This document shows, piece after piece, positions 23,650 through 63,300 of a stretch of DNA of 64,000 bases. The translations under genes and the position numbers were made by a program. Within the stretch, counting starts at the first letter, position 1. Every line of letters begins with the position of its first letter. The stretch lies in NCBI GenBank assembly GCA_049428425.1, contig JBMTAF010000001.1:3464-67463 (forward strand), in the 5' to 3' direction. The DNA is from Candidatus Nanopelagicales bacterium. GTDB lineage: Bacteria > Actinomycetota > Actinomycetes > S36-B12 > UBA5976. The notes below the pieces were generated by a model. The model was given only the letters and a program-made list of their open reading frames with translations, was not told where the DNA came from and did not search any database.

Positions 23650-26313
23650 ATGGCATCGAAAAATTCCCTTGGCGCAAAGCGCACGCTGACCGTTGGGACA
23701 GCAGAGCACACATATTACTCAATCTTGGAGATCCCCGGCGCCGAGACTTTGCCATTTAGTTTAAAAGTGCTGTTGGAAAATTTGCTTCGTACGGAAGATG
23801 GAGCAAATGTAACCAAAGCCCAGATCGAGTCGCTGGCTAATTGGGATCCTTCAGCTGAACCTGATGTGGAAATCCAATTCACTCCAGCTCGAGTAATTAT
23901 GCAGGACTTTACAGGCGTTCCTTGCGTGGTAGACCTCGCGACGATGCGTGAAGCGGTAACTCAACTTGGTGGCAATCCCGACCGCGTAAATCCATTAGCA
24001 CCGGCTGAACTGGTGATTGATCATTCGGTAATTGTGGATTATTTTAATCGGCCAGATGCCGCTGAGTTAAATGTTAAATTGGAATATGAACGCAACAGCG
24101 AAAGATATAAATTCTTACGTTGGGGGCAAGGTGCATTTGATGAGTTCAAAGTAGTACCACCTGGAACTGGAATTGTGCACCAAGTAAATATTGAGCATTT
24201 GGCCAGAGTCGTAATGTCTCGAAATGGTGAGATATTTCCAGATACTTGTGTTGGTACGGACTCACACACCACTATGGTCAATGGCTTAGGCGTTCTCGGC
24301 TGGGGCGTCGGTGGCATCGAGGCAGAAGCTGCCATGTTAGGTCAGCCAGTTTCAATGTTAATTCCGCGAGTAGTTGGTTTCAAGTTGCGAGGTGCTCTTA
24401 AACCTGGGGTTACCGCAACCGACTTGGTTTTGGTTATTACCGAAATGCTCAGAGAGCACAAGGTAGTTGGAAAGTTTGTTGAGTTCTATGGCGATGGCGT
24501 AGCGCAGGTGCCGTTAGCAAATCGCGCAACCATCGGAAACATGAGTCCAGAATATGGTTCAACCGTAGCGATCTTCCCAATTGATCAAGAAACGCTTGAC
24601 TATTTGACGCTAACTGGTCGCAGTAACGAACAAGTTGAATTGGTTTCTGCGTACGCAAAAGCGCAAGGACTCTGGCATGATCCGACAAAAGAAGCTCGAT
24701 ACTCAGAATATATTGAGCTCGACTTGGCAACTGTAGAGCCATCAATTGCTGGACCGAAACGACCTCAAGATCGAATTCTGCTGAAGAATGCTAAGCAAAC
24801 ATTCAGCGAAATATTGCCCAGCTATACCAACAATGCTTCGGCGACGGAACAAGTTACAACTGAAGGTAAATCTGTTTCTTTGACGCACGGAAAAGTTGTG
24901 GTAGCAGCAATTACCTCATGTACAAATACTTCAAACCCAGAAGTCATGCTAGGCGCAGGCTTACTAGCTAAGAAGGCTGTCGCTAGAGGGCTGACCAGGG
25001 CACCTTGGGTTAAAACTTCACTTGCCCCAGGTTCCCAGGTTGTTACAGATTATTTGGCCAAAGCAGGTGTTACGCCAGCTCTTAACGAGTTAGGTTTTGA
25101 TCTTGTTGGTTACGGTTGCACTACCTGTATTGGAAATTCTGGCCCATTGCCCGCTGAGATAAGTCAGGCCGTTCAAGATGGCGATTTGGCTGTAGCTGCA
25201 GTATTGAGTGGAAATCGAAACTTTGAAGGTCGAATCAATCCAGATGTAAAGCTAAATTTTCTAGCAAGCCCATTACTGGTAGTGGCATACGCAATTGCTG
25301 GCAGCATGGATGTCGACCTTACTTCCGAGCCAATTGGTTTTGATTCGACTGGAAAGCCAGTGATGTTAGCTGAGATCTGGCCTACTACACAGGAAATCCA
25401 GGCAGTGATTGCTGACTCGATTGATGTTGACTTATTTGTTAACCGATATAAAGACGTCTTCAAGGGCGATCAAAATTGGCAGCAGTTACCCACACCGGCT
25501 GGAAAAGTATTTGAATGGGATGCGAAATCAACCTATGTGAGAAAGCCCCCATACTTTGATGAAATGGAGCTAGCTCTAACACCAGTTACGGATATCAGCA
25601 ACGCAAGGGTTCTGGCAAAATTGGGCGATTCAGTCACCACTGATCACATTTCCCCAGCAGGCAGCATCAAAAAGGATTCTCCAGCAGGTAAATATCTGAT
25701 GGAAAATGGCGTTGATTTTAAAGACTTCAACTCCTATGGCTCTCGCCGTGGCAATCATGAGGTAATGATCCGAGGAACGTTTGCGAATATCCGACTCAAG
25801 AACGAATTGGCGGATGGCAAAGAAGGTGGCTTTACTAAGGATTTCACCAAGACGGAGCAACCCGTTGTTGCAATTTATGATGCGGCACAAGCATATGCCG
25901 CTGCAGAAATTCCATTAGTAGTGCTTGCTGGAAAAGAGTATGGTTCTGGCTCATCTCGCGACTGGGCAGCAAAAGGAACGGCACTGCTTGGGGTTAAAGC
26001 GGTAATTGCTGAATCTTATGAGCGAATTCACCGATCTAATCTAGTTGGAATGGGTGTATTGCCGTTGCAGTACATTGACGGACAAGATGCTAAAACTTTA
26101 GGTCTTTCTGGCGATGAGTCATTTTCGATAAGTGGCATAACTGAATTGAATGACGGCACTACACCAAAGCAAGTAAAGGTAGTTGCAACTAAACCTAATG
26201 GAACTCATATTGAGTTTAATTGTTTGGTGAGAATTGATACACCTAGAGAAGCTGACTATTATCGCAATGGTGGAATTCTGCAGTACGTTTTGCGAAACTT
26301 AGTTAGCCAATAA
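23650..26313 (+). CDS. acnA: Aconitate hydratase A
   Basis: [15 protein letters not shown] and [10 protein letters not shown] Fe-S ligand motifs, about 887 aa. ATG at 23650 follows GGAGG. Confidence 0.95.
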
Positions 26314-27058
26314 CAGCCGGAAGATTCTGCACTAACAGATAGATTGCAACACTAGTTACAATCAACGCAAAGATTCGCTGCAGTGTTTTAGCGTTTAATT
26401 TGGTCGCTAAAGGGGATAGCAGCGTCGAAGCAGCTATTGCGGCAATAGTAAACAGCGCAATTTCGAATGCGGGTATTTCAGTCCAATAATTAAAACGAAG
26501 CAAGAAAGCAATCACCGAATTTCCTGTAATCGCAACCAGTGAAGTTCCAACTGCGGTTTTCGTGGGCACTTTAAGAAACAAAACTAATGCTGGAACGATC
26601 AGAAAGCCGCCACCGATACCAAGCAGGCCAGTTAATACCCCGACGCCAGTTGCAGCTGCTACGACGGCGGACCAATTTGGTTTATCAGAAGTCGAATCCT
26701 TTACCTCTCGACAGCACATTGCATATGCTGAACTAAACATCAGCAGCGCAAAGATAGTTAGCAGTAGTTCGTCAGGGATGAATCTGAGCAGCCAGGTTCC
26801 AAAGAAGGTGCCTAGTAAACCTAGTGCTGAGAAAATCAGTCCTATCTTTATTTTGATTTGACCTGATCTTCTTCGACGCAACACACCTGCTATGGCTGCA
26901 GATCCCACGATAATTGTTGAGCTGGTTGTTGCAGCGGTGGCAGATAGACCTAATGCCGCAACTAATCCAGGCACTGCCAGAATCGCACCACCGGCGCCAA
27001 CCAGACCCAATACTGCGCCAACAATTACGCCGAGCAGTAAACCAAACAAAATGGTCAT
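26303..27058 (-). CDS. TauE/SafE family sulfite exporter
   Basis: 251 aa, 7-8 TM, Gly-rich helices ([26 protein letters not shown]) typical of TauE/SafE. Confidence 0.85.
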
Positions 27059-27061
27059 TTA

Positions 27062-27391
27062 TTAAGCAACCTGCGGATTGCCAGAATCTGCAACTATTGG
27101 CAGCCCTGCCGCATGCCAGGCTTTCATCCCACCTTCTAGATTCAAGATGTTCATCCCGGTAGGCGACAGTGCATCACATACTTGCCCTGATCGATTGCCA
27201 GATCGACAGATGAAAATGATGGGTTTATCTGTCTTTAATTTCTCTAAACTGAATTCACTTAGTGAATTCAGTTCAACGCCAGCAATATGGCCGGCATCCC
27301 ATTCATTCTTCTCGCGAACATCAACGCCATACGCTGTGCCAGCTTCCAGCATTTTTATAGCTTCTGTTGGTGAGATTAGATTCATTTTCAC
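27062..27391 (-). CDS. Single-domain rhodanese sulfurtransferase
   Basis: Active-site loop CRSGNRSG, 109 aa. Confidence 0.85.
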   Translation of the reverse strand: MKMNLISPTEAIKMLEAGTAYGVDVREKNEWDAGHIAGVELNSLSEFSLEKLKTDKPIIFICRSGNRSGQVCDALSPTGMNILNLEGGMKAWHAAGLPIVADSGNPQVA

Positions 27392-28797
27392 TACGCCAAT
27401 GCTTTTACGTCTGACGGTGCAACTGGTCCGGCATCAGCAGCGCCGGCAACTAGTACTAATTTATCCACAGATAGCGCCTTTTCGTAAGGTTCATTAATCA
27501 GCACCACAGAGAATCCAGCATTTTCCAGGATGCTGGCAGCAATCGCGGCACGATAGGCACCGGCACAGTGAACCCAAATCGTCTTATCTATTGGTAGCTC
27601 TGAAAGTCTGGCCTGCAGTTCATGTAGCGGAATGTGCGAACTGCCAGCGATGTGTGAAGCTTCTCGTTCGCTATTTCTTCTAACATCTAGAACTAAAATA
27701 TCTGCATTATCAATAATCTCTGGTACATCACTAAATTTGACCAATTTAGTTTCCTTTAAGTTTTCCATTTTTGCAATATCACCCACAAAACTACCGCTTG
27801 GGCGATCAATTCCAATTCTCACCAATTCGCGTTGTGCTAGTGCGATTTCATCAGGCTGATCGGAAATCAGAATCAATTCACTCTCGTAAGGGAATAACCA
27901 GCCTAGGTAGGTTGCAAAAGATCCAGTAACACCAAAATTAATTGTGCCTGGCAGGTGCCCGGCAGCCCAAGAATCTTTATTACGAAGGTCAACCACCCAG
28001 TTATTGTTAGAAATAGCTGTTAGTAATTCAGCGGTGCTCATTCGACGCAGTTCAGATAGATCAATTGGACCTGGTCCGGCATGGTTTGCAGGTCCCATAT
28101 GCTTGTAGTAAGCAGGAAATGCATCTAGACCAGCAAGCGTTTCACTCACGAAACGCTCAACCGTCATCAGGAGCGCTGGGTTTAGCCGCTTCTCATCACC
28201 AATAGTTGAAGAGGTGCCAGAGGTTGATGTCGCTGCGCAGAATGAGCCAAAGCCATGCGTTGGATAGATTGGCGTTTGGTCACTTAGTAATTCAACAATG
28301 CGGTGAGCTGATCCGTGTTGTAGTTTGGCTAGTTCAGCTGCGTGATCTGGACCTAGTAAGTCAGGCCTGCCAGTAGACCCATGAAGTAATGAACCGCCCG
28401 TAAAGATTCCTTGGTAGTTTCCATTTCCATCAGCTAGCAGGTAAGACAGATGGGTAAAGGTGTGACCAGGGGTGTGGATCGCTTTAATACCAAAAGTTCC
28501 AATGCTGAATTCATCCAAATCTGAAGCTGCGACTCGCTCGAACGAAACTGGATCAGCTGCACTAGTAATGTAATTTGCGCCAAAATTACGGGCGAGAACT
28601 AAGCCGCCACTGACATAATCATTATGCATATGCGTCTCAACCACCGCACCTAATTCCAAATGGTTATCAGCTAGAAGTTTTTCGACGCGATCAATATCGC
28701 GTTGCGGGTCGACTACTAGCGCAGTTTTTCCATCGTGGGCGATATAGCCGCGATCGCCTAGGGTAGGGGTATCAATACTGATTACGTTTAGAGACAT
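27391..28797 (-). CDS. MBL-fold hydrolase fused to rhodanese domains (persulfide dioxygenase-sulfurtransferase, CstB/Blh-like)
   Basis: N-terminal metallo-beta-lactamase motif THMHNDYVSGG, and two C-terminal rhodanese-like modules, the last with active-site HCAGAYR. Confidence 0.8.
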   Translation of the reverse strand: MSLNVISIDTPTLGDRGYIAHDGKTALVVDPQRDIDRVEKLLADNHLELGAVVETHMHNDYVSGGLVLARNFGANYITSAADPVSFERVAASDLDEFSIGTFGIKAIHTPGHTFTHLSYLLADGNGNYQGIFTGGSLLHGSTGRPDLLGPDHAAELAKLQHGSAHRIVELLSDQTPIYPTHGFGSFCAATSTSGTSSTIGDEKRLNPALLMTVERFVSETLAGLDAFPAYYKHMGPANHAGPGPIDLSELRRMSTAELLTAISNNNWVVDLRNKDSWAAGHLPGTINFGVTGSFATYLGWLFPYESELILISDQPDEIALAQRELVRIGIDRPSGSFVGDIAKMENLKETKLVKFSDVPEIIDNADILVLDVRRNSEREASHIAGSSHIPLHELQARLSELPIDKTIWVHCAGAYRAAIAASILENAGFSVVLINEPYEKALSVDKLVLVAGAADAGPVAPSDVKALA

Positions 28798-28824
28798 TTT
28801 GATCCTTTCTTGCTGAACCCTAGC

Positions 28825-28840
28825 ATACCCCCAGGGGTAT
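28825..28840. promoter_or_regulatory. CsoR/CstR-type operator palindrome ATACCCC-CA-GGGGTAT in the divergent promoter region
   Basis: 7-bp perfect inverted arms around a 2-bp centre. It is the only such element in the 76-bp gap between the two sulfur operons. A TATACT -10-like hexamer lies 4 bp downstream (28845-28850). Confidence 0.6.
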
Positions 28841-28873
28841 CTGCTATACTAAGCCGAGTCGAATTGGGGAAAA

Positions 28874-29362
28874 ATGCCAACTTGTTTTGCCGCGCTGAGT
28901 CAATGGCGTTTCAAGAATTGGGTAGTTGCTGCCGCAAGCAGCATTGCCACAGTGGTGATTATCGGTATTCCAACCGCCATGATTGCTAACCCAATTTTCG
29001 GCCGAGCCGTTGCTGTCACTGATTGGTCTTGGCCAGTGCTAATCGCGACTGCCATCTTGGCTGGATTATTGATTGGAAGTTACGTTGCGATAGATCCAAC
29101 GGCGACCGGCGAGCGTGAACTGAAGTTTGGCACAGCTGGTGGAATTCTTGGTTTTCTCGCCGTTGGCTGTCCAGTGTGTAACAAATTGGTTCTGATTGCG
29201 TTAGGAAGCTCTGGCGCAATGACTTATTTCGCTCCAGTCCAACCATTTTTAGGCATAGCGGGGATAGCTTTTCTGATGTATGCCCTTCGCACCAGACTCC
29301 AAAACCAAGCCGGATGCAAATTGCCAACTCAGAATCAAAAAATCAAAGCAACAACAGAATAG
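28874..29362 (+). CDS. Four-TM membrane protein with intramembrane CPVC motif
   Basis: Hydrophobicity pattern suggests 4 helices, with GFLAVGCPVCNKLVLIALG in helix 3. First gene of the operon that also encodes thioredoxin. Confidence 0.55.
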   Translation: MPTCFAALSQWRFKNWVVAAASSIATVVIIGIPTAMIANPIFGRAVAVTDWSWPVLIATAILAGLLIGSYVAIDPTATGERELKFGTAGGILGFLAVGCPVCNKLVLIALGSSGAMTYFAPVQPFLGIAGIAFLMYALRTRLQNQAGCKLPTQNQKIKATTE

Positions 29363-29369
29363 GAAACTC

Positions 29370-29738
29370 ATGGCTACTCTAGAACTAACAGCAGCAAACT
29401 TTGAAGATACGGTTACCAAAGACGGGATCACTCTGGTTGATTTTTGGGCTGAATGGTGCGGTCCTTGCCGAATGTTTGGTCCGATTTTTGAAGCAGCTTC
29501 AGAGCAGCATCCAGACATCACATTTGGCAAGGTAGATACTGAAGCCGAGCAGGGTTTAGCTGCTGCGGCAAACATAACATCAATTCCAACCCTAATGGCT
29601 TTCCGAGATGGCATTTTGGTCTTTGCTCAACCTGGAGCTCTGCCAGCAGCGTCACTTCAAAGTTTAATTGATGGTGTCAAAGCACTTGATATGGATGAGA
29701 TCAGAAAAGAAATTGCTCAGGAGCAATCGAATGGCTAA
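29370..29738 (+). CDS. trxA: Thioredoxin
   Basis: WAEWCGPCRMFGP active site, 122 aa. ATG at 29370 is preferred over the 29280 start, which overlaps the upstream gene. Confidence 0.9.
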   Translation: MATLELTAANFEDTVTKDGITLVDFWAEWCGPCRMFGPIFEAASEQHPDITFGKVDTEAEQGLAAAANITSIPTLMAFRDGILVFAQPGALPAASLQSLIDGVKALDMDEIRKEIAQEQSNG

Positions 29739-30042
29739 GTCAAGAATTGCAAATCAAAATCAAGAAATTGACAGTTACACTCTTCAAGACGAAGTTCAAC
29801 TAAAAGACATAATCAAACGAATTAATCGAGCCCATGGACAATTGGGAGCGGTAACTAGGATGCTTGAAGAAGGTAAAGATTGTGAAGCGGTGATTACTCA
29901 AATTGCTGCGGTTAGTAAAGCGATCAATTCTGCAGCATTTATGTTGATTTCATCCAGCCTCAAGGAATGCATGATTGAAGGCGAGCGAGATACCGAAGAG
30001 GTCTCTGCCAAATTGCAGAAGTTATTTTTAAGTTTAGCCTAA
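29731..30042 (+). CDS. CsoR/RcnR-family repressor, CstR-like (non-metal, persulfide-sensing type)
   Basis: RINRAHGQLGAVTRMLEEGKDC...KEC. The two Cys are 29 residues apart, and the position of the CsoR Cu-ligand His (C+25) is Ser. The start overlaps the trxA stop (ATGGCTAA). Confidence 0.75.
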   Translation: MAKSRIANQNQEIDSYTLQDEVQLKDIIKRINRAHGQLGAVTRMLEEGKDCEAVITQIAAVSKAINSAAFMLISSSLKECMIEGERDTEEVSAKLQKLFLSLA

Positions 30043-30054
30043 TTAAGGAGAGAG

Positions 30055-30447
30055 ATGCGAAAATACATAGCTTTAATTGTTACGCTGATGCTGGCTCTTG
30101 CTGGTTGCTCGAATTCAGCTAACAGTTCAGTCACTGATTTAAGTGTCGCTGACTTCGCAAACACAATAGCTACCGAAGATGTAGTTATTTTGGATGTGCG
30201 AACACCAGGTGAATTCACCACGGGACACATTGCAAATGCAATCAATATCGATGCTGAAAGCGGTAGCTTTGCTAGCCAAATTGAATCTTTAGACAAAACA
30301 AAAACGTATGCTGTCTATTGTCGTAGCGGTAATCGATCAGGTAACGCAACCAAAATCATGGCAGAGGCTGGGTTTACCAGTTTGTACAACATGTTGGGCG
30401 GAACTATTGATTGGACAAATTCCGGCTTCCCACTAACAACTAACTAA
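30055..30447 (+). CDS. Rhodanese-domain lipoprotein
   Basis: Lipobox LALAGC after a signal peptide, and rhodanese active-site loop CRSGNRSG. Confidence 0.8.
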   Translation: MRKYIALIVTLMLALAGCSNSANSSVTDLSVADFANTIATEDVVILDVRTPGEFTTGHIANAINIDAESGSFASQIESLDKTKTYAVYCRSGNRSGNATKIMAEAGFTSLYNMLGGTIDWTNSGFPLTTN

Positions 30448-30461
30448 AGAAGGAAACAGAT

Positions 30462-30638
30462 ATGTGCTCAAGAGTTACCTGTCGCAGTTGCAATAAGCCA
30501 ACTTGGTCCGGCTGTGGAAATCACATAGAGGAAGCGTTAGCGGGAGTTGCTAAGAAGGATCGTTGCCAATGCGGAAGCAGTTCGACAGCAACGACCCTTA
30601 AATCTGGTGGATTCTTCTCGAAACTCTTTGGAAATTAA
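30462..30638 (+). CDS. Small Cys-rich protein, 58 aa, below the ORF-track cutoff
   Basis: ATG lies 6 nt after GAAGGA and 14 nt after the rhodanese lipoprotein stop. Translation: MCSRVTCRSCNKPTWSGCGNHIEEALAGVAKKDRCQCGSSSTATTLKSGGFFSKLFGN (6 Cys). Confidence 0.45.
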   Translation: MCSRVTCRSCNKPTWSGCGNHIEEALAGVAKKDRCQCGSSSTATTLKSGGFFSKLFGN

Positions 30639-30641
30639 TCT

Positions 30642-30680
30642 TTACTCCGGGTTGATTAGTTCATCATCAACCCGGAGTAA
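30642..30680. terminator. Perfect 15-bp inverted repeat (TTACTCCGGGTTGAT-N9-ATCAACCCGGAGTAA) embedded in the last 13 codons of the S51 peptidase gene
   Basis: Read directly: arms 30642-30656 and 30666-30680 are exact reverse complements. It sits at the junction of convergent genes. There is no adjacent U-tract, so terminator function is inferred. Confidence 0.45.
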
Positions 30681-31379
30681 CTCACCGGGCAAAAGCGAAT
30701 GATCATGTTTGGTTAGGACAGTGGCTTTGCCGTATCCCCAAACTTCCCACACACGACTTTCGCCAGTGCTTACCAGAGCGGTATTTTCATCAATTCCAAT
30801 AGGCAAAATTTCTGAAGACGTTCGTCCCAAGAATTTCGCCATTGGTTTTGGTATCCATCCAAAGTATCGATCAAAATGTGGCAATACTTTCAGCCTCTCG
30901 GCAACATTTAGACCGGGTGTAGCAGCTGCGGTTAACTTAAATGGATTTGCGACTTCAGCAGATAGCGCCATAGCACCGGCGCTGCAACCAGCTAATGATG
31001 AACCAGATCTCCAGTTCTGCCAAATGGTTTCGAAAAGCGGTGAGCCGCGCAAGGTATCGGTCAGATAGATTGGATTGCCGCCGGATAAATAAATAAGTGC
31101 CGCATCTTCAATTTGTTGACATAAGGCATGATTCAACGTATCTGCTTTTTCATACGCTTCGACAAATACTGCTTCTACGCCGATTCGATCTGCTTGTGCT
31201 TGGCCCAATTCGCGCCAACGTTGCAGGCTTGCATACCCTTCTTGACCGGCAGCGGTTGCAAGTTGCACAAACTTAGGCTTTTTGCCATTGGCAACACCCT
31301 GCTCAATTAACTTTTGTTCAAGAGGTTCCATCGAAAGCAAATACTCGCCAGAGCCAACTAAGGCAATTGTTCCTGCCAT
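30642..31379 (-). CDS. Peptidase S51 / type 1 glutamine amidotransferase-like protein (cyanophycinase/dipeptidase E family)
   Basis: IYLSGGNP and GCSAGAMAL (nucleophile Ser) motifs, 245 aa. Confidence 0.7.
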   Translation of the reverse strand: MAGTIALVGSGEYLLSMEPLEQKLIEQGVANGKKPKFVQLATAAGQEGYASLQRWRELGQAQADRIGVEAVFVEAYEKADTLNHALCQQIEDAALIYLSGGNPIYLTDTLRGSPLFETIWQNWRSGSSLAGCSAGAMALSAEVANPFKLTAAATPGLNVAERLKVLPHFDRYFGWIPKPMAKFLGRTSSEILPIGIDENTALVSTGESRVWEVWGYGKATVLTKHDHSLLPGELLRVDDELINPE

Positions 31380-31442: not shown

Positions 31443-31637
31443 TTGAGCAATCGATCTATTTCATATGCCGGAATTGCGCTGGCACTTTTAGCCTTTCTCA
31501 TTACATTTGATTGGGGCGAATCAAATCCTGACCAACTCTCGGCATCAGAGGCACTTACCACTTCCGCAGCGGTCTATATCATGGTTTTTGTGGTGCTCAA
31601 GCTTTTTGCTTGGTTAATATCTAAGCTTCGCGACTGA
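31443..31637 (+). CDS. Small two-TM membrane protein (hypothetical)
   Basis: 64 aa with two clear hydrophobic helices. TTG start and a weak RBS. The competing minus-strand ORF 31358-31561 looks less protein-like. Confidence 0.35.
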   Translation: MSNRSISYAGIALALLAFLITFDWGESNPDQLSASEALTTSAAVYIMVFVVLKLFAWLISKLRD

Positions 31638-60376: not shown

Positions 60377-63300
60377 ATGAGTGACTCATTTGTGCACTTG
60401 CATGTGCACACTGAGTACTCGATGCTTGACGGTGCTGCTCGATTAGATGACTTAACGGCCGAAGTAGCGCGGCAGCAAATGCCAGCAATTGCGATTACCG
60501 ATCATGGCTATCTGTTTGGCGCATATGAGTTTTACAAGAAATGTAAAGCAGTGGGAGTAAACCCAATCATTGGCTTGGAGGGTTATTACGCTCCCCAGGG
60601 AAGAGCGAACCGAACCCCGTTTGAATTTGGTGCAATTGGGGTTGAAGACGTAGCAGAAGGGCTAGCCAGAGGAAGTAGTGCATATACCCATATCACGTTA
60701 CTTAGCGAAACCACTGCTGGAATGCACAATTTATTTAGATTATCTTCGCTAGCAAGTATTGAGGGTTATTACTACAAACCACGAATGGATTTTGAACTGC
60801 TAGAAAGATACGCAACCGGATTGATTGCAACTACGGGATGTCCCAGCAGTGAAGTTAACCGATGGCTCCAAGCTGGAAAATACGACAAAGCAAAGGTAAC
60901 CGCCGCTATATTACAATAAATTTTTGGTAAAGATAACTTCTACTGTGAGTTAATGGATCATGGTATTGAAATAGAACGCAGACATCGGGACGATTTGCTG
61001 CGATTAGCAAAAGAGCTAGCAATTCCACTTTTAGCGACAAATGACACGCATTATGTCCATGCAGCTGATGCAGATGCACATGAAGCGCTGCTTTGTATTG
61101 GCACTAGAACGACGATGGCTGATCCAAATCGGTTCAAGTTTGACGCTCGAGATTTTTATATTAAATCTGCCGCCGAGATGCGAGCGGTGTGGGGAGACTA
61201 TCCAGAAGCGTTAAGCAACACCTTAGCAATAGCCGAACGTTGCGCGGTTGAGTTTAATGAAGGTGCGAATTTACTCCCTCGATTCCCAGTTCCCGCAGGT
61301 CACACTGAAGAAACTTGGCTAATTCAAGAAGTTGAGAAAGGGCTAATTCAACGTTTCAAAGGTAAGCCAACTCAACAGCATCTTGATCAAGCAAAGTATG
61401 AGATTCAAGTAGTCAGTCAAATGGGATTCCCTGGCTATTTCTTGGTAGTAGCAGATTTAGTACGACATGCAAAGGCTAATTCGATTCGAGTCGGTCCTGG
61501 TCGAGGATCAGCTGCTGGATCGGTTATTTCTTGGGCGCTAGGGATTACCGAACTAGATCCGATTAAGCACGGCTTATTGTTCGAGCGCTTTCTAAACCCA
61601 GATCGAATCTCAATGCCCGATATCGATATCGATTTCGATGAACGTCGACGATCCGAAATGATTCGTTATGCGACCGACACCTACGGTGATGATCGAGTTG
61701 CTCAGATTGTTACCTACGGCACGATTAAGGCAAAAGCCGCGGTAAAAGACTCAGCTCGAGTACTGGGATATCCATATGCAGTTTCTGATCGAATTACAAA
61801 AGTGATGCCGCCACCAATTATGGGTAAAGATGTGTCACTTAAGGAAATGTTTGATTCAAGCCACTCGCGCTATCAAGAGTCTGCTGAGTTTAGAAGTTTG
61901 TATGAAGTAGACCCAGACGTTACCAAAGTCGTCGATACCGCTAGGGGATTTGAAGGGCTCAAGCGCCAACCTGGAGTTCACGCGGCAGGTGTGATCTTAA
62001 GTCGCGAACCATTACTTGATGTAATCCCAATCTGGCGTCGAGATGATGGATCGATCATCACACAGTTTGATATGGGTGCATGCGAATCTCTTGGATTGTT
62101 AAAAATGGATTTCTTAGGTCTACGAAATCTGACGGTGCTTGATGAATGCCTGGCAAATATTAAGCGTAACCGCAATGAGACGATCGTGCTAGAAGAGTTG
62201 GAGTTAAACGACGCAAAAACCTTTGAATTGCTTTCCAAAGGTGAGACTTTAGGTGTTTTCCAACTTGATGGCGGGCCGATGCGTGCTTTGCTGAAATTGC
62301 TGCAGCCAGATTCATTTGATGATATCTCGGCCGTTATCGCGCTTTATCGACCTGGCCCGATGGGCGCTAACGCTCACGTCGATTACGCGAATCGAAAAAA
62401 TGGCAGAGAGCCAAACAAGCCAATTCACCCTGAGCTAGCAGAGCCACTAGCTGAGATTTTGGATGAAACTTATGGCTTGATTGTTTACCAGGAGCAAGTT
62501 ATGGCGATAGCCCAGAAACTTGCTGGCTACACCTTGGGTACTGCCGATTTGCTCCGCCGCGCCATGGGCAAAAAACAAAAAGATAAACTGGAAAAAGAAT
62601 TTGAGCCGTTTAAAAATGGCATGATAGAGCGTGGCTTTAGTGAAGCTGCAATTTTAAAGCTGTGGGAAGTGCTAGTTCCGTTTAGCGACTATGCATTTAA
62701 TAAGGCGCATTCGGCCGGATATGGCTTGGTGTCATATTGGACGGCATACTTGAAAGCCAATTATCCGGCGGAATACATGGCAGCACTCTTAACTAGCGTT
62801 AAAGACGATAAAGACAAGATGGCAATTTATTTGAATGAAGCCAGAAGAATGGGCGTGAGCGTTCTACCGCCTGATGTAAATGCTTCTTTTGTTGACTTCA
62901 CTACGGTTGGCGAAGCGGTCCGCTTTGGCTTGTCGGCTGTGCGAAATGTCGGCGAAGGAGTAGTTGAAAGCATCGTTCGCACTCGAGAAACTAAAGGAAA
63001 CTTCACCTCGTTTCAAGATTTTCTAGATAAAGTTGAGATTACCGTTTGTAATAAGCGGGTGTTGGAATCATTGATTAAGGCTGGCGCTTTCGACTCATTG
63101 AATCACGCCCGCAGAGCATTACTTGCAATTCACATAGATGCGATTGACGCGGTAACTGAAACCAAAAGAGCGGAAGCGGTCGGACAATTCGACCTCTTTG
63201 GTGGAATTAGTGAACCAGTGGCTGGACATCAAGTAGTTAATATTCCAGATCTGCCGGAGTGGGATAAGACCACTTTGCTCAATTATGAGCGAGAGATGCT

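Follow-up and report, generated by a model that had tools for sequence, protein, structure and literature searches.

Eight genes arranged as two divergent operons at positions 26303–30638 of a 64,000-nucleotide stretch of Candidatus Nanopelagicales DNA (contig JBMTAF010000001.1, assembly GCA_049428425.1; the whole stretch is referred to as the window) probably form a reactive-sulfur (persulfide/polysulfide) stress regulon of a freshwater Nanopelagicales (acI) actinobacterium that includes a transmembrane thiol relay arm. The original prediction, made from the sequence alone, had described a persulfide/sulfite detoxification island with unusual extra components, namely a CPVC membrane protein, a thioredoxin, a lipoprotein rhodanese and a Cys-rich protein of 58 residues. 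Judged by operator sequence and gene neighborhood, these extras are not peculiar to the window: they are conserved and operator-linked parts of a regulon found across the phylum. The eight gene products were borne out in coordinates and domains by an open reading frame (ORF) check and by Pfam and NCBIfam searches, with the starts of the thioredoxin and repressor genes corrected to the ATG codons at 29370 and 29731, respectively. The features of the island are as follows.

26303–27058, minus strand: TauE/SafE-family anion exporter of 251 amino acids (PF01925), last gene of the minus-strand operon.
27062–27391, minus strand: single-domain rhodanese of 109 amino acids, predicted to be cytoplasmic (PF00581, E 1.2e-14).
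27391–28797, minus strand: CstB-like (type III persulfide dioxygenase (PDO)-like) metallo-β-lactamase (MBL)-rhodanese fusion of 468 amino acids, with MBL, pseudo-rhodanese and C-terminal rhodanese domains.
28798–28873, no strand: divergent control region of 76 bp, read from the sequence.
28825–28840, no strand: operator ATACCCCCAGGGGTAT, which fits ATACC-N6-GGTAT.
28874–29362, plus strand: MerT-like CPVC membrane protein of 162 amino acids with the motif GCPVCNK, in no Pfam family.
29370–29738, plus strand: cytoplasmic thioredoxin of 122 amino acids with the motif WCGPC (TIGR01068).
29731–30042, plus strand: CstR-type CsoR-family repressor of 103 amino acids (PF02583).
30055–30447, plus strand: lipoprotein rhodanese of 130 amino acids (PF00581, E 1.7e-19).
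30462–30638, plus strand: Cys58, the 58-amino-acid Cys-rich protein, of a conserved family and with its own Shine-Dalgarno sequence.
30642–30680, no strand: perfect 15-bp inverted repeat with a 9-nt loop, from a repeat search.

The operator was the sole perfect copy of ATACC-N6-GGTAT in the window, and an identical sequence occupied the same place in a related locus (L003). Candidate −10 boxes of the TANNNT type were present on either side of it, TAGGGT on the minus strand (ACCCTA, 28817–28822) and TATACT on the plus strand (28845–28850), and because the operator lies between them one bound repressor could shut both promoters. An operator-like site at 61935 had three mismatches, fell within chance expectation and was discounted. 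ATACCn6GGTAT is the site mapped by electrophoretic mobility shift assay for ScCsoR of Streptomyces coelicolor, a two-Cys CsoR-family repressor that is freed from DNA by polysulfide and targets ScPDO, TauE and a rhodanese (PMC7533328). The Cu-sensing CsoR of S. lividans has the site ATATACCCCTNAGGGGTATAT, in which the half-sites are one base further apart (PMC3902906). Judged against these two sites, one characterized example per operator type, the operator in the window is of the persulfide-sensor type and lies beside sulfur-oxidation genes.

The repressor was assigned to the CsoR/RcnR fold (PF02583, E 6e-22, 78 bits against a cut-off of 22.8) and carried the motif x-C-S-C, in which Cys51 and Cys80 were kept and Ser76 took the place of the Cu-ligand His. 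The absence of this His, part of the original prediction, was confirmed by alignments: Ser76 aligned with the His of the Cu-CsoR 4ADZ and of 6AHX, and with the Asn of Enterococcus faecalis CstR (7MQ1). The Cu-ligand His was likewise absent from all 19 of the CsoR-family genes found beside island genes, in lineages that range from acI to Nocardioides and Arthrobacter. Actinomycete x-C-x-C proteins were grouped by Fakhoury et al. into the 3,175-member cluster 3 of a sequence similarity network (SSN) as candidate persulfide sensors (PMC8643695). The N6 spacing and the His-less regulators together suggest that the arm answers to a persulfide-type regulator and not to copper.

ORFs called in 83 distinct related loci were searched with the window proteins. 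At distances of up to 7 kb from the CPVC gene, Cys58 was found in 27 loci, thioredoxin in 25, the lipoprotein rhodanese in 21, the CsoR-family repressor in 18, the 109-residue rhodanese in 15 and TauE in 11; an MBL-rhodanese match of any kind was found in 13, and the full-length fusion in 11. Thioredoxin was the commonest gene directly 3′ of the CPVC gene (13 loci), and in L003 and L005 the two genes overlapped by 14 nt. Thioredoxin, lipoprotein rhodanese and Cys58 genes are recurrent neighbors of the CPVC gene. Several Nanopelagicales shared the pattern of the window, in which TauE, rhodanese and MBL-rhodanese genes diverge from (lipoprotein rhodanese-Cys58-)CPVC-thioredoxin-(rhodanese-)CsoR.

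Perfect ATACC-N6-GGTAT sites numbered 81 in the 896 kb of related loci, and spacings of N4, N5, N7 and N8 numbered zero. In 81 loci the upstream DNA was long enough to be judged, and in 64 of these the N6 operator was present 5′ of the CPVC gene or its operon: 42 had a perfect site no more than 160 bp 5′ of the gene, four had a near-perfect one, and in 18 the site headed a multigene operon that includes the gene. None was found in the other 17, several of which are truncated contigs. The operator was also present 5′ of MBL-rhodanese, lipoprotein rhodanese, CsoR, thioredoxin, rhodanese and stand-alone Cys58 genes. What the analysis shows directly is the gene content, the homologies and the operator, together with how far the operator is conserved and linked to these genes in other genomes.

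A second, Planktophila-type pattern was identified in which a sulfide:quinone oxidoreductase (SQR) homologue (3HYV, E 5e-38) adjoins the series CsoR, lipoprotein rhodanese, a 547-residue CoA-disulfide-reductase/rhodanese fusion, Cys58, ICMT-like protein, CPVC, thioredoxin and methyltransferase. The 547-residue protein is a full-length homologue of CoA persulfide reductase (CoAPR; 8A56, E 4e-151). This pattern was seen at L007 (4710–6353), L011 (529–2172) and L052 (412–1866), and also at L008, L016, L017, L029 and L040. In these loci the SQR and CoAPR homologues stand in place of the dioxygenase, rhodanese and TauE, and the lipoprotein rhodanese, Cys58, CPVC and thioredoxin genes are retained. 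By gene content, therefore, acI lineages swap the oxidative core for a reductive core known from enterococci and keep the arm. The genes for a short ICMT-like membrane methyltransferase and a class I methyltransferase that bracket CPVC-thioredoxin there hint at S-methylation.

In other orders, the CPVC gene diverged across the operator from a rhodanese gene or from a TDT/TehA-type anion channel gene, or stood alone. The channel gene, with ATACC-N6-GGTAT between it and the CPVC gene, was found at L042 (5865–6932) and also at L048, L050, L057, L079 and L085; such a channel may stand in for TauE.

The CPVC family comprised at least 1,536 homologues, none of them named, and when one genome was scanned for each species its carriers numbered at least 591 species genomes, all Actinomycetota save a few metagenome-assembled genomes (MAGs) titled otherwise. 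Invariant in the family alignment were G-C-P-x-C-N-K in the third transmembrane helix (TM3), an Arg in the first external loop and Cys148 directly after TM4. A residue count under the positive-inside rule placed the N-terminus, the second loop and the C-terminal tail bearing Cys148 in the cytoplasm. The AlphaFold model had four long helices with a predicted local distance difference test (pLDDT) score of 67.

Comparison by hhalign of the CPVC profile with canonical MerT (a sequence 100% identical to annotated merT) gave a probability of 92.4% and an E value of 5e-7, with 40% identity over 62 columns, residues 87–149 aligning with MerT 12–77. In the alignment CPxC was matched to the MerT CC pair, LVLIALGSSGA to LVLIALGFSGA and Cys148 to MerT Cys76. 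Matches of family members to NCBIfam models were all below threshold (MerT in 12 of 23, MerTP in 11 and MerT/CopZ fusion in three), and the window protein scored 9.1 bits against a cut-off of 32.9 for Pfam PF02411 and 19.3 against 150 for NCBIfam NF010314. The CPVC profile gave no match by hhalign with a divergent Salinibacter protein of the 'MerT family', and the claim of homology is therefore drawn from canonical MerT only. The CPVC protein is a probable remote homologue of MerT and not a member of that family. Literature searches on MerT-like proteins in persulfide systems, and on Rv1766, returned nothing relevant.

The thioredoxin encoded next to it exceeded the TIGR01068 cut-off (102.7 bits against 96.8) and carried the motif WAEWCGPCR. 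It was 70.5% identical to the trxA product of a circuit copy on a Streptomyces plasmid, in which trxA adjoins the regulator gene. That plasmid, from Streptomyces sp. NA03103 (L087, NZ_CP054921.1, 51754–65082), carries two copies of the CsoR/MBL-rhodanese/rhodanese circuit; the copy with trxA also has a rhodanese whose C-terminal membrane anchor is YgaP-like, and a split TauE-like ORF lies within an unannotated gap before trxA. The lipoprotein rhodanese of the window has a signal peptide, the lipobox LAGC and the active-site loop CRSGNRS, and is predicted to be held on the outer face of the membrane. The lipobox was kept in 17 of its 22 homologues.

Cys58 is a real gene, having a Shine-Dalgarno sequence and being kept in a relative whose neighboring membrane protein is 58% identical. 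The window protein lacks a signal peptide. The family has C7, C10, C18, H21 and C35 as invariants and C2 as nearly so, and formed 1171 clusters at 50% identity in a profile search of 1.84 billion representatives, mostly stand-alone proteins of 40–100 amino acids. No relatives were detected in the PDB, Pfam or NCBIfam. The AlphaFold model, with a pLDDT of about 83 over residues 1–30, was of a β-hairpin with a CxxC knuckle followed by a short helix, and resembles small zinc fingers or a zinc knuckle; matches of the model to small zinc-finger structures were non-significant only. The sole functional clue to Cys58 is its linkage to the lipoprotein rhodanese, the CPVC protein and the operator. On Rhodococcus erythropolis plasmid pBD2 (L088, NC_005073.1), an unannotated Cys58 homologue at 1637–1765 has the operator 55 bp upstream and is near YgaP-like, DUF302, TauE, CsoR-family and MBL-rhodanese genes, beside metal-resistance genes. 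The family also reaches eukaryotes, with a 60-residue chytrid fungus protein and a WD40-repeat fusion (P0361, P0342), an odd distribution for a member of a bacterial regulon.

In the minus-strand operon, the stop codon of the fusion gene overlapped the start of the 109-residue rhodanese gene by 1 base, and a 3-nt gap separated the stop of the latter from the start of the TauE gene. The original prediction of a persulfide dioxygenase-like fusion was sustained in architecture. Pfam recognized Lactamase_B and two rhodanese stretches, and the protein aligned over its full length with Staphylococcus aureus CstB (residues 25–439, PDB 3R2U, E 8e-43) and with 3TP9 (residues 25–429, E 4e-49). The catalytic Cys of the C-terminal rhodanese was kept, WVHCAGAYRA aligning with YVHCQSGIRS of CstB. 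The canonical Asp iron ligand was not found, either in the window protein or in its clade.

The iron ligands of ETHE1 are H79, H135 and D154, the Asp lying within an S/T-G-D motif. Both His residues were present in the MBL site of the fusion (THMHNDY and TPGHT), and the Asp position was occupied by Gly (FTGG instead of SGD), leaving the 2-His-1-Asp set incomplete; the fusion is for this reason named CstB-like only. The structures 3R2U, 3TP9 and 4YSB read SGD or TGD, and CstB, 3TP9 and the Myxococcus PDO all keep the Asp. Gly stood at this position in all 15 actinobacterial homologues examined, 12 from related loci (down to Nocardioides) and three from plasmids, these Streptomyces and Rhodococcus plasmid proteins serving as a proxy for SCO0618. 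Common to the 15 were the motifs THxHNDY, TPGHT, (T/S)GG and PTHGFGSFC; the window protein also has PTHGFG. Besides the window, loci of the Gly clade were L003, L006, L009, L015, L020, L021, L028, L034, L037, L038, L070, L087 and L088. ScPDO of S. coelicolor is a PDO-rhodanese fusion active on glutathione persulfide (PMC7533328); given this reported activity, the Gly clade is probably functional with a re-built metal site. With three His remaining, the site may be of a 3-His type.

The 109-residue rhodanese had the active-site loop CRSGNRS, which was kept in its homologues. TauE matched PF01925 over its full length (143 bits, E 1.6e-41, residues 7–241 against profile positions 2–237 of 237), was found at the same position in L003, L006, L009, L015 and L020, and is presumed to export sulfite or thiosulfate.

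The following mechanism is proposed. A CstR-type tetramer on the single operator between the divergent promoters would hold both operons off, and sulfane sulfur would persulfidate or cross-link Cys51 and Cys80, whereupon the repressor would leave the DNA. From the minus-strand operon, the single-domain rhodanese of the cytoplasm would carry sulfane sulfur together with the rhodanese domains of the fusion, the MBL domain would oxidize it to sulfite or thiosulfate, and TauE would export the product. From the plus-strand operon, the lipoprotein rhodanese would take sulfane sulfur from thiosulfate or polysulfide at the cell surface, and the MerT-like protein would link it, via the CPxC of TM3 and the cytoplasmic Cys148, to the dedicated thioredoxin. 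Thioredoxin is an established acceptor for single-domain rhodaneses such as GlpE and PspE of Escherichia coli. Here it would resolve a persulfide or disulfide, so that the two halves of the rhodanese:thioredoxin logic would lie on opposite sides of the membrane, as in MerP-MerT-MerA or DsbD. The sulfur atom could cross on cysteines, or could leave as H2S with only electrons crossing. Cys58 would be a co-regulated cytoplasmic CCCH partner. In this scheme we infer what induces the operons, which way the relay runs and what it carries, and how the MBL site reacts without its Asp. A more specific proposal is made only tentatively: that a MerT-fold protein was recruited for sulfur and, with a surface rhodanese and a thioredoxin, forms a minimal transmembrane Cys relay (moving sulfane sulfur in or reducing power out) that would allow the most abundant bacteria of fresh water, unable to reduce sulfate, to strip sulfur from external thiosulfate or polysulfide under a persulfide sensor, in a regulon that includes a carboxylate-less PDO lineage.

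Several points weigh against a stress regulon with a relay arm. The MBL domain of the whole clade is without the Asp ligand, and dioxygenase chemistry is therefore not assured. Of the CPVC genes, 17 of 81 had no operator and many had no sulfur gene within 7 kb; ORF calling in GC-rich loci was also crude, the GC3-filtered caller being imperfect. The similarity to MerT is below the Pfam and NCBIfam cut-offs and was not reproduced with the divergent MerT-family protein, and a search with the CPVC model, whose confidence is modest, found no structural neighbor. Copper sensors use CsoR-type operators too. To our knowledge, a transmembrane relay of this kind is without experimental precedent.

The plus-strand arm might instead serve sulfur acquisition, converting external thiosulfate or polysulfide to sulfide for cysteine synthesis in a lineage unable to reduce sulfate. 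MerT moves its cargo inwards, and the predicted placement of the rhodanese outside and the thioredoxin inside would suit uptake; the arm is, in addition, very abundant in freshwater metagenomes. Nanopelagicales are without assimilatory sulfate reduction and are thought to rely on reduced sulfur (PMC5301498, PMC12817590). The repressor of the arm, however, would be relieved by an excess of sulfane sulfur, and co-expression with an operon that oxidizes and exports fits removal. The CPVC family is also widespread in soil actinomycetes, which are assumed to assimilate sulfate. Acquisition is, on this balance, unlikely to be the role of the arm.

Handling of selenium or tellurium oxyanions, reduced by the rhodanese and thioredoxin and volatilized by methyltransferases, would account for the ICMT-like and class I methyltransferases that flank CPVC-thioredoxin in other genomes, and for the pairing of CPVC with TehB-like methyltransferases and the TDT/TehA-type channel. 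Those methyltransferase and TehA genes are absent from the window, however, and the TDT family includes sulfite exporters too. Since the regulator and operator are, moreover, those of a demonstrated polysulfide sensor (PMC7533328), this explanation is considered improbable.

Soft metals (Hg, Cu, Ag or Cd) could be the substrate of a MerT-like protein and a Cys-rich protein under a CsoR-family regulator, with the sulfur enzymes secondary. The homology of CPVC to MerT, the position of the Rhodococcus pBD2 copy beside metal-resistance genes, and a regulator family and operator type that are classically copper-responsive (PMC3902906) all speak for it. Yet every adjacent regulator lacks the Cu-ligand His, and the operator spacing is N6 and never N7. 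In the 83 loci P-type ATPase motifs numbered zero and HMA-like motifs two, MerA and MerR were not seen, and the recurrent partners were rhodaneses, thioredoxin, PDO-like, CoAPR-like, SQR, TauE and TDT proteins, which makes a soft-metal system very improbable. That the extra genes are mere neighbors of a standard CstR circuit, as the many CPVC genes with no other island gene nearby might suggest, is scarcely credible given the conservation of the operator 5′ of CPVC, Cys58, thioredoxin and lipoprotein rhodanese genes across orders, the overlap of CPVC and thioredoxin genes, and the persistence of the arm when the core enzyme is swapped.

The proposed sulfur-stress regulon appears to be an ordinary part of its chromosome. 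The original prediction had called the island a clearly accessory, self-regulated module; self-regulation of a divergent CstR-type system is supported by the operator between the operons, and the clearly accessory status is not supported by composition and synteny. The GC fraction of the island was 0.40–0.48, similar to that of the flanks, and neither tRNA genes nor Rfam features were detected in the window. The closest genomes were Candidatus Nanopelagicales MAGs. In L003 the same order was found (aconitase, TauE, rhodanese, MBL-rhodanese, CPVC, thioredoxin, CsoR, rhodanese and Cys58, with S51 peptidase, RNase D and DUF3000 further on), and the position between the aconitase and the S51 peptidase/RNase D genes was also kept in L006. 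With its gene order shared by a relative, the island belongs syntenically to the chromosome of the lineage and is not an obvious accessory insertion. A mobile-element origin was rejected in view of the unshifted composition, the absence of tRNA genes and repeats, and the retained synteny.

The aconitase and TauE genes, which are convergent, share 11 bp at their 3′ ends (26303–26313), so that no intergenic terminator would fit between them. At the other end of the island, the 15-bp inverted repeat is directly 3′ of the Cys58 stop codon and wholly inside the final codons of the convergent gene for the S51 peptidase; it is a possible terminator of the plus-strand operon, in which the repressor start overlaps the thioredoxin stop by 8 nt. 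The S51 peptidase (30642–31379) is cyanophycinase-like with a score below the cut-off (TIGR02069, 63 bits against 126.6), and in several other Actinomycetota the CPVC gene is followed, on its own strand, by a gene of a different S51 subfamily. A hydrophobic ORF of 64 residues at 31443–31637, lying between the genes for the S51 peptidase and RNase D, probably encodes a real small membrane protein: a 64-residue gene occupies this position in L003, and the L003 and L010 ORFs there were grouped by clustering.

CstR-type circuits have been known chiefly from Firmicute pathogens and from one Streptomyces study. The core of the island (the CstB-like fusion, rhodanese, TauE and x-C-S-C repressor) is already known as the characterized ScCsoR/ScPDO/Rhod/TauE circuit. 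The present analysis shows that the actinobacterial circuit has a conserved second arm, of which no description was found in the literature searched, centered on an unannotated and probably MerT-related membrane protein family of hundreds of species. The operator ATACC-N6-GGTAT marks this family across the phylum, and acI lineages alternate oxidative (PDO-like and TauE) and reductive (SQR and CoAPR-like) cores with the arm constant. The actinobacterial PDO-rhodanese clade is without the canonical Asp ligand. If the relay is true, it would be a new mode of handling sulfur across a membrane and would bear on how sulfate-auxotrophic freshwater bacterioplankton gain or tolerate reduced sulfur; if it is false, the genes remain a clean regulon.

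Among known systems, the arm may be compared with the DsbD/CcdA-thioredoxin conduits and GlpE/PspE-type sulfurtransferases, in which, by analogy, a cytoplasmic thioredoxin is likewise coupled to an extracytoplasmic thiol protein. The coupling in the window is drawn from gene order and co-regulation only, and no sequence relation of CPVC to DsbD or CcdA was detected. In the mer relay, MerP is periplasmic, MerT has a CC pair in the membrane and a Cys pair in the cytoplasm, and MerA has an N-terminal CxxC. MerT thus offers a precedent for a path that leads from a thiol protein outside, through a Cys pair in the membrane and a Cys on the cytoplasmic side, to a CxxC protein within the cytoplasm. 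The window shares this layout, and TM3, TM4 and the tail of CPVC are probably remotely homologous to TM1, TM2 and Cys76 of MerT. Unlike MerT, the window protein has CPxC in place of CC, two extra N-terminal helices and one cytoplasmic Cys (Cys148) rather than two. Its partners are sulfur enzymes; MerR, MerP and MerA were found neither in the window nor among the recurrent neighbors in the 83 loci.

The CstR operon of E. faecalis and streptococci (RhdA, RhdB and CoAPR) similarly places single-domain rhodaneses under CstR, and sister acI loci have a close homologue of CoAPR. The window, in contrast, has an oxidative CstB-like enzyme and no CoAPR, and neither a surface rhodanese nor a membrane relay is known from the Firmicutes operons. 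With the cst operon of S. aureus (CstR, TauE, CstA, CstB and SQR) the island shares a CstR-type dithiol repressor, the CstB architecture and TauE. It differs in having Gly at the Asp ligand of CstB, in having single-domain rhodaneses and no multidomain CstA, and in the absence of SQR, no homologue of which was detected in the window by tblastn, in agreement with the original prediction. Actinomycete sensors belong to SSN cluster 3 and S. aureus CstR to cluster 4 (PMC8643695), and the CsoR subgroup of the window repressor probably differs from that of S. aureus CstR. The match to the logic of cst that had been predicted thus holds in kind, and the nearest precedent is the actinomycete ScCsoR/ScPDO/Rhod/TauE circuit together with the cluster 3 sensors. 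That circuit, S. coelicolor SCO0618–SCO0621 (Lu et al. 2020, PMC7533328), has the same four kinds of protein, phylum and operator, a two-Cys regulator with no reported His ligand, and a PDO gene co-transcribed with tauE. In the window, by comparison, the regulator is inside a five-gene operon with the MerT-like protein, thioredoxin, lipoprotein rhodanese and Cys58, and one operator serves both operons.

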